From the NCBI GenBank assembly GCA_964503955.1, contig CAZDCG010000001.1:2962-66961 (forward strand): a stretch of 64,000 nucleotides of DNA, read 5' to 3'. Source of the stretch: an uncultured Gammaproteobacteria bacterium. Its GTDB lineage: Bacteria > Patescibacteriota > Patescibacteriia > VMEV01 > CAYQCH01. Position 1 is the stretch's first letter. Every line of letters begins with the position of its first letter. The position numbers and the translations under genes were made by a program. The notes below the pieces were generated by a model, which saw only the letters and a program-made list of their open reading frames with translations, was not told where the DNA came from and made no database searches. This document shows, in pieces, positions 35,001 to 35,733 of the stretch.

Positions 35001-35733
35001 GTGAACCGGTTCGATCAGGAGTAGCAAGCATGTTGAGGTCCATTGACTGAGCCCCTGCAACTGAACCAATCCATGATTCAACTTCAGAAATGTCGTCAGC
35101 CATCATCATGGCTTTTACAACGCTCAAGTCACCGGTTGGCATGTAGTTTGCTGTTTGACCAGAAAGGTAAACAGTTCCAGTAGCTACGTTCTTAACGAAC
35201 TGGCCAGCTGGAAGAACGCCAAGACCGCCAAGGTTTGCAGATACAGTTCCTGACGCAACCGTGTAGTTGGTGAAGAAAGCATCTGGTACATCGTCGATCA
35301 ATGTGTTCCAGTTTGATCCGTAAAGTTCAACAGCTGTTGCTTCGCTGTCAATCGCGTAGAGCGATCCGTTCGCACCAACAACGTATACTTTTGGATCAGT
35401 TGTGATTTTCACAAGTTTCGCACCTGGGCGATAGGTAGCATTACCACCAATAGCCAATGCAGCCAATTCAGCGTCAGAGATAGTTTTCACTGAGCTGAAA
35501 CCTGACCACCAGGTTCGATAGGTCTTTTCATTTGGGAAAACGTAGCGCTTTCCGTTATCACCAATGTAATAAACGGCAGCGAGAGACGCTTTCACCAAGT
35601 CACCTTCTGCAACAGCGGCAGCGCTTGGCGCAGCAGCGGCAGAAAGAGGAGCAAACGCAGATACTCCGATTGACCAAACAGCGGTCATCGCAGATACAGC
35701 GATTGTGAATCCTTTCTTAAGAGTTTGTCTCAT
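32080..35733 (-). CDS. Giant (1217 aa) secreted surface protein, Thr/Ser/Ala/Gly/Val/Asn-rich beta-repeat protein with N-terminal copy of the shared ~115-aa domain
   Basis: Signal peptide. The N-terminus VYYIGDNGKRYVFPNEKTYRTWW...YRPGAKLVKITTDPKVYVVGANGSLYAIDSEATAVELYG, followed by >1000 aa of low-complexity beta-rich sequence (adhesin/S-layer-like). Plus-strand ORFs inside are artefacts. Confidence 0.8.
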   Translation of the reverse strand: MRQTLKKGFTIAVSAMTAVWSIGVSAFAPLSAAAAPSAAAVAEGDLVKASLAAVYYIGDNGKRYVFPNEKTYRTWWSGFSSVKTISDAELAALAIGGNATYRPGAKLVKITTDPKVYVVGANGSLYAIDSEATAVELYGSNWNTLIDDVPDAFFTNYTVASGTVSANLGGLGVLPAGQFVKNVATGTVYLSGQTANYMPTGDLSVVKAMMMADDISEVESWIGSVAGAQSMDLNMLATPDRTGSLEGGDGGQQTSGAVTASVKQKSTGLLMSAGANTSQNVQRAVLDVCGNGQMLDAFSVSTAQGTVSATDMIMYAMINGLLYEQGSTTQSNTVVELVPTEGKATLSGCQELHLFAASSNTSGRTKLVMTQIKHSGSGAAATESVNLVTHENDNVSVSADQLADVAWSNATPAGGSTLQSDGNMQKVFGVQQDINNNDVYLPAFVMKAPGALSASGCELRRDGTKISDSYSQNGTWWTFEIGEANRVFEEGSDSMEVWCRVNGEAGQSVTPQLTWPAPGFHIYDNTRVKAGAAFNSNLELIAPAVIRTSVSVTSSLSISGASITAEVISLTKVTDNGVLLDDKKTSGTSNSPVAAYRVKVRGSRANLPSLTLAVSGANDDTGFSGCQVKIGMRKDGAEFSTTAVNTADFDLSNFGVETAINNDGGAETFAVNGNQNLEVGDHLLLVVCDITASANAYGNNDQLAMVLVAPGAAQVTFNTGGTATFPASNVTATTVTISLLTSITVAADGTTRFLVENGTNQLLGVYTITGPSQEGVVITSISMTFAVGVAGANACTSVTLKNASGTELATSQSLTGAGTLNFSVNISVAKNAQYLLHVVCVQTSSNVTAGTQAAATTLASISGTGQQSGQSFTANPATAGAQVNRVDSGTLTASQSTNKSNRVVGPNKELLVLEFSTTASIHEDQELTSLVITLAPANNASVNDLSTVRVAADGLTGSAAVSDICTRVVTGTVLTCTFSSDQLVLSAGQTATFFVYAKGNSFGNIAVAGGAAADTITTSIAAAATDINFKGQESDAAVNPAAATLTGRVLTPFASDFYLVKQSIPSTLLAGQTNMDLFHMDLVVSGSTVILNSLGITCTTNDAGAPATVDGTVACDDNDTADLEIDSTIVATQTLATRAATLTPVGGTTLTVGTHAGRLLVDSTGCGNNETVQINLATINYTASDGTNTDTIQGETVTEPFNAAPGNIVTGFSNLCG

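Follow-up and report, generated by a model that had tools for sequence, protein, structure and literature searches.

Three secreted proteins encoded in the window (the whole stretch of 64,000 nucleotides that was analysed) share a module of about 120 amino acids, for which we favour, at a probability of roughly 60%, a role as a self-contained extracellular anchor that would hold its carrier proteins non-covalently on the cell envelope; the role would resemble that of SLH domains, on a fold like that of the EccB repeats and PlyCB. The homology of the copies, their internal duplication, the fold, the size and taxonomic range of the family, the terminal position of the module and its fusion partners emerged directly from the comparisons below. 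What we infer is that the module binds the envelope, which ligand it uses there and that it retains its carrier.

A duplicated module in three secreted proteins

The three proteins, designated A, B and C, are encoded on the minus strand, as are all other features whose coordinates are given here. Protein A (32080..35733, 1217 aa) is an S-layer-like or adhesin-like giant, composed of a predicted signal peptide (about aa 1-34, 35632..35733) whose N-terminus is basic and whose aa 9-27 form a hydrophobic 19-mer, an N-terminal module (aa 44-165, 35239..35604; translation checked and modelled with AF2), and about 1050 residues rich in T, A, S, G and V, which have no Pfam or NCBIfam match. Protein B (53912..55075, 387 aa) carries a signal peptide at aa 1-23, ending in AGA ahead of a Q, the module at aa 28-150 (54626..54994) and a C-terminal region of 235 aa. 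Protein C (27339..28982, 547 aa) has a signal peptide at aa 1-23, an N-terminal region, a Big_1 Ig-like domain (aa 315-389, 27816..28040; Pfam E 1.3e-8) and a C-terminal module (aa 402-522, 27417..27779); the modules of B and C were delimited with the unit HMM and their translations checked. The hydrophobic, signal-like N-terminal segments of A and B stop just ahead of the block.

Over a shared block of about 122 aa the three proteins are 39-50% identical, with pairwise BLASTP E-values from 1e-24 to 2e-36 (A/B, 40% and 2e-36; A/C, 39% and 1e-24; B/C, 50% and 4e-31), and the three-way alignment contains 39 invariant columns. The initial annotation had described such a homologous block, internally duplicated, directly after the signal peptide in two secreted proteins and at the C-terminus of a third; open reading frames, BLASTP and the alignment bear out the homology and the placement, and the duplication is treated below. 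The span it gave in A, 35238..35586, needed revision: at 349 nt it is not a multiple of three, and it corresponds to aa 50-165, covering the rest of the block but omitting its first strand (GDLVKA). An HMM built from the three copies, a check that the annotation had named, recovered those copies and nothing else from the six-frame translation of the window. That the block is a similarity of chance or composition, or a recently duplicated fragment with no function as a unit, is an explanation for which we found no supporting point; it is rejected by E-values down to 2e-36, by a family of 6004 clusters, by a confident, compact structural model and by invariant residues present across 101 family members, and we regard it as virtually eliminated.

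The block consists of two homologous units of about 58 aa, some 120 aa in all. In A, the first unit spans aa 44-98 (35440..35604; unit HMM match aa 44-98) and the second aa 104-165 (35239..35424; unit HMM match aa 104-160); the corresponding units, likewise assigned with the unit HMM, lie at 54827..54994 and 54626..54811 in B, and at 27615..27779 and 27417..27596 in C. When profiles of the two halves were compared with hhalign, they aligned over 53 in-register columns (E 8.9e-4) with a score of 20.5, against 10.8 +/- 2.5 in 200 column-shuffles, none of which reached 20.5; the two unit types also aligned almost without gaps over 62 columns. AF2 produced a confident, compact model of the isolated module of A (pLDDT 92.9; 84.5 for a single unit), in which the secondary-structure elements follow in identical order in both halves. 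The duplication is therefore real, though weak at the sequence level. A third half-repeat following the block, placed at aa ~174-218 of A and aa ~155-200 of B on visual inspection and from a weak BLAST segment, was rejected, as the module HMM scored 0.0 and the unit HMM gave no match at E<=1 (single-sequence space).

Scanning A, B and C for other transmembrane segments or sorting motifs yielded no clear one that might hold the proteins in another way, which was counted in favour of the anchor. An LP.TG match at aa 362 of C is followed by no hydrophobic tail and was read as chance, not as a sortase signal. Protein A also contains a single borderline hydrophobic 19-mer (aa 776-794), lying exactly at the cut-off of 1.6. 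The regions outside the module are poorly represented elsewhere: the C-terminal 235 aa of B have no BLAST homologues among the fetched family members or related loci, so that this partner region gives no functional clue; the non-module part of A has homologues in only three loci, in each of which (L006, L007 and L011) C-like proteins come after A-like giants; and that of C has a handful.

A probable distant kinship with the EccB repeat

Neither A, B nor C matched any Pfam-A or NCBIfam model over the block at E<=1, no model of either collection matched the module in 163 family members, and there was no significant match among PDB sequences. The best PDB hit of the three-copy profile was to the cNMP-binding domains of PKG (E 0.04) and was judged noise; those of a mixed-unit profile, headed by designed PQQ-type propellers that summed repeats of ~2 bits each and including 'AVYYC' matches to antibody VH domains, were judged spurious. 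Against PHROGs, the module of C gave only a weak match, to a group of unknown function (phrog_9616, E 6.8e-4). Nor did we find the module described in literature that links CPR/Patescibacteria to PlyCB, to the anchoring of S-layers or to domains that bind cell walls.

The closest structural relatives of the unit are the repeat domains R1-R4 of EccB, a core component of the type VII secretion system (T7SS; PF05108; PDB 3x3m, 4kk7, 5cyu). EccB1 ranked first with Foldseek as well, and the leading five structures stayed the same when the whole module was the query. The unit HMM matched repeat R4 of EccB1 (MYYIDPQGVRYGVPNAETAKSL) with 14.5 bits and E 1.6e-6 in a single comparison (hmmsearch). By profile-profile hhalign, unit and EccB repeat aligned at 91% probability (E 1.1e-6), the score of 32.5 lying about 10 sd above that of 200 shuffles (10.1 +/- 2.2). 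In a search of all PDB sequences EccB1 reached only E 0.06, level with the spurious antibody matches, and PF05108 matched neither A, B and C, even at E<=1, nor any of the 163 family members at E<=1e-3. Judged from these profiles, the repeat unit is probably a remote relative of the EccB repeat. The annotation had called the domain unrecognised and had named a match to a characterised domain as what would count against it; the first statement stands for Pfam-A and NCBIfam, and the second is partly realised in the EccB repeat. It is thus for family databases alone that the module counts as unrecognised, and the probable kinship lowers its novelty.

The two kinds of protein otherwise differ. EccB is a membrane protein of actinobacterial T7SS loci, with an N-terminal transmembrane helix, a central core domain and four repeats, whereas in the patescibacterial proteins two tandem repeats stand behind a cleavable signal peptide and are joined to many unrelated partners, and A, B and C lack a core domain; none of the 20 neighbouring ORFs of the window that were scanned was a T7SS gene. 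Wall binding by EccB is itself a hypothesis only (PMC4769845).

Comparison with wall-binding domains of endolysins

The model also resembles solved cell-wall-binding domains (CBDs), the fold relatives being PlyCB and the C-terminal CBDs of the enterococcal phage endolysins LysIME-EF1 and Lys170 (PDB 4f87, 6ist, 7d55), with 6-10% identity and no signal at the sequence level. Each repeat of the module has a small beta/alpha fold, with about four beta strands plus helices, in common with the EccB repeat, PlyCB and the CBDs of enterococcal endolysins. For this fold, experiments have demonstrated attachment to walls: PlyCB recognises group A carbohydrate by its polyrhamnose backbone (10.1101/2021.03.19.436156), and the LysIME-EF1 CBD binds E. 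faecalis cells, a binding nearly abolished by R190E (PMC7098653). The module has an invariant arginine in unit 1 (R69 of A, within GKR-YVFP), to which R112 in unit 2 of B corresponds; these are candidate analogues of LysIME-EF1 R190 and PlyCB R66. In the phage proteins the domain is a single unit that assembles into homo-octamers or homo-tetramers and comes joined to a peptidoglycan hydrolase, whereas the module has two units in one chain and partners that are mostly not peptidoglycan hydrolases.

PlyCB and the LysIME-EF1 CBD are obligate oligomers, and the periplasmic domains of EccB oligomerise too; in the same way the module might be a docking or oligomerisation unit, which would form rings or dock on a membrane or wall protein and organise a surface layer without binding glycan itself. 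EccB, its closest fold relative, is a structural part of a multiprotein machine whose glycan binding is unproven, and the stand-alone modules of ~180 aa could supply additional subunits to such rings, as free CBDs do for enterococcal lysins. No conserved partner gene was found in general, however, with sigma/anti-sigma genes beside the giants only; moreover, docking is compatible with wall binding, the two acting together in the phage examples. As an explanation in its own right we judge it unlikely.

A large patescibacterial family with terminal modules

The family comprises 6004 clusters at 50% identity, essentially all from Patescibacteria and all named "hypothetical". Among 148 representatives, the module was terminal in 145: in 130 it is N-terminal after a signal-like segment, in 8 C-terminal and in 7 at both ends, the remaining 3 being internal. 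Its partners are unrelated extracellular domains (Ig-like, Big_7, fn3, TIG, GH10, GH114, Peptidase_C25, trypsin, cupredoxin and M23); cupredoxin fusions account for 26 of 62 mid-sized members, and stand-alone module proteins of ~180 aa are abundant. Two or three paralogues occur within 10 kb in 27 of 84 related loci, and the present window holds three copies. Terminal position, diverse extracellular partners and nearby paralogues together amount to anchor-like family behaviour, and only retention at the cell makes sense of fusing a soluble cupredoxin to the module. The initial annotation had read the placement as one expected of a cell-surface anchoring or cell-wall-binding module, and our analysis supports this as the likely role. 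N-terminal modules are also carried by a class of ~1100-1350 aa, the A-type giants, found in 37 of the 84 loci; their modules are 58-77% identical, whereas the remainder is ~29-42% identical or undetectable, a contrast that, read from sequence, fits a conserved anchor beside a variable exposed part.

These features recall the SLH domain (PF00395) known from S-layer proteins and exoenzymes of Gram-positive bacteria, which likewise forms tandem repeats of ~55 aa, is terminal on S-layer-like proteins, glycosidases, proteases and other exoproteins, has many paralogues per genome, pairs a conserved anchor with a variable exposed part and does the job proposed here. The analogy is functional only, a terminal anchor common to an S-layer-like giant and diverse exoproteins: SLH has three helical repeats, whereas the AF2 model of the module has two beta/alpha repeats and there is no PF00395 match. 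LysM, SH3b, CWB2/CW_binding_2, PG_binding_1, SPOR and choline-binding repeats are alike in the general role proposed for the module; no Pfam match to LysM, SH3b, CWB2, PG_binding_1 or SPOR was found in A, B and C or among the partner families listed for the 163 members, and SLH, LysM, SH3 and PG_binding were equally absent from those partner families (the first 25 of 33 being listed). Nor was a peptidoglycan-hydrolase catalytic domain present in A, B and C or the listed partners; one such fusion came to light, a partial protein with Peptidase_M23 (P0033), and the module is therefore not a typical targeting domain of autolysins.

A rival reading makes the module an adhesin or carbohydrate-binding module, instead of a self-anchor, with a glycan of a foreign cell as its ligand, for instance in the host wall of an episymbiotic Patescibacterium, or with an environmental polysaccharide. 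Phage CBDs of the same fold recognise target-cell walls, at 12-14% aromatic residues the module resembles carbohydrate-binding modules, its fusions to GH10, GH114 and proteases would suit substrate targeting, and module proteins occur on two viral contigs. Those two loci were the only ones in the viral contig scan and neither encodes a lysin, so that the scan offers no support for the module serving CPR phages as a lysin CBD. Cupredoxin fusions, stand-alone modules and the N-terminal position kept in the giants are hard to explain by substrate targeting; across many lineages the module is far more conserved than its partners, whereas host-specific ligands would be expected to drive divergence; and without a self-anchor all module proteins would be lost from a single-membrane cell. 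We thus find this reading improbable and retain the envelope anchor.

Gene neighbourhoods

Scanned neighbours of the module genes in the window encode sigma/anti-sigma factors, glycosyltransferases, Wzy, Wzx, DivIC and TPR proteins. Directly upstream of A lies a gene for an anti-sigma-like protein of 427-444 aa (36118..37401 or 36118..37452; weak DUF5667 match), and upstream of it on the same strand one for an ECF-type sigma-70 factor (37376..37942; Pfam). In the 37 related loci with giants the sigma factor is kept in 34 and the anti-sigma in 30; the pair accompanies only giants, not other module genes, and no conserved partner gene travels with module genes in general in the neighbourhoods inspected.

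Protein B belongs to a surface-glycan operon (52386..59790), assigned from Pfam matches, which also encodes a Wzy_C O-antigen-ligase-like protein (52386..53915), glycosyltransferases of families GT2 (55078..56022), GT1 (56026..57195) and GT4 (57197..58297), and a Polysacc_synt/Wzx-like flippase (58294..59790). A stand-alone member (P0054) adjoins SpoIID, Polysacc_synt and Wzy_C; another locus (L005) has no glycan-synthesis neighbours, and none of the operon genes flanking B has a homologue among the 84 related loci. The tie of the module to glycan synthesis is thus inconsistent. The window further encodes the lipid II flippase MurJ (11220..12830; PF03023, E 1.5e-84), which indicates that the organism makes peptidoglycan, a candidate ligand.

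Discussion

We propose that, after Sec export and cleavage of the signal peptide, the module would bind a polymer of the cell's own envelope non-covalently. Candidates for the polymer are peptidoglycan and a glycopolymer linked to the wall, for example one made by the Wzx/Wzy-type operons that adjoin some module genes. The fused partner, be it a giant of ~1200 aa, an Ig-domain protein, a cupredoxin, a glycosidase or a protease, would thereby be kept at the surface of a presumably single-membrane cell, and two units per chain would give built-in bivalency, where phage CBDs reach multivalency as rings of 4 or 8 subunits.

Much of bacterial diversity belongs to Patescibacteria/CPR, of which hardly any have been cultured and in which about half of the genes lack annotation; to our knowledge, how they build their envelope and display proteins on it, including those for host attachment, is largely unknown. 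A bolder and clearly more tentative proposal, which we hold as possible though doubtful, is that the module is a general, phylum-specific device holding the surface proteome of Patescibacteria (at least of the Uhrbacteria/Parcubacteria type) on the wall, that its ligand is a CPR wall glycopolymer made by Wzx/Wzy-type operons, and that the ~1200-aa giants downstream of ECF sigma/anti-sigma genes are the S-layer proteins of these cells. If so, its sequence would tag the entire surface proteome of CPR bacteria, and the module would also argue for a wall-binding ancestor of the EccB repeats. The probable kinship with EccB already bears on what the periplasmic repeats of this mycobacterial ESX core component bind, and a small, well-folded domain (about 120 aa, pLDDT 93) is suited to binding and structural studies. 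Thousands of secreted proteins carry the module, including an S-layer-like giant, cupredoxins, glycosidases and proteases, which it may tether to the wall; conserved and easy to recognise, it would nominate candidate S-layer proteins together with their regulators, and would make it practical to list CPR surface proteins with no more than genome sequences.

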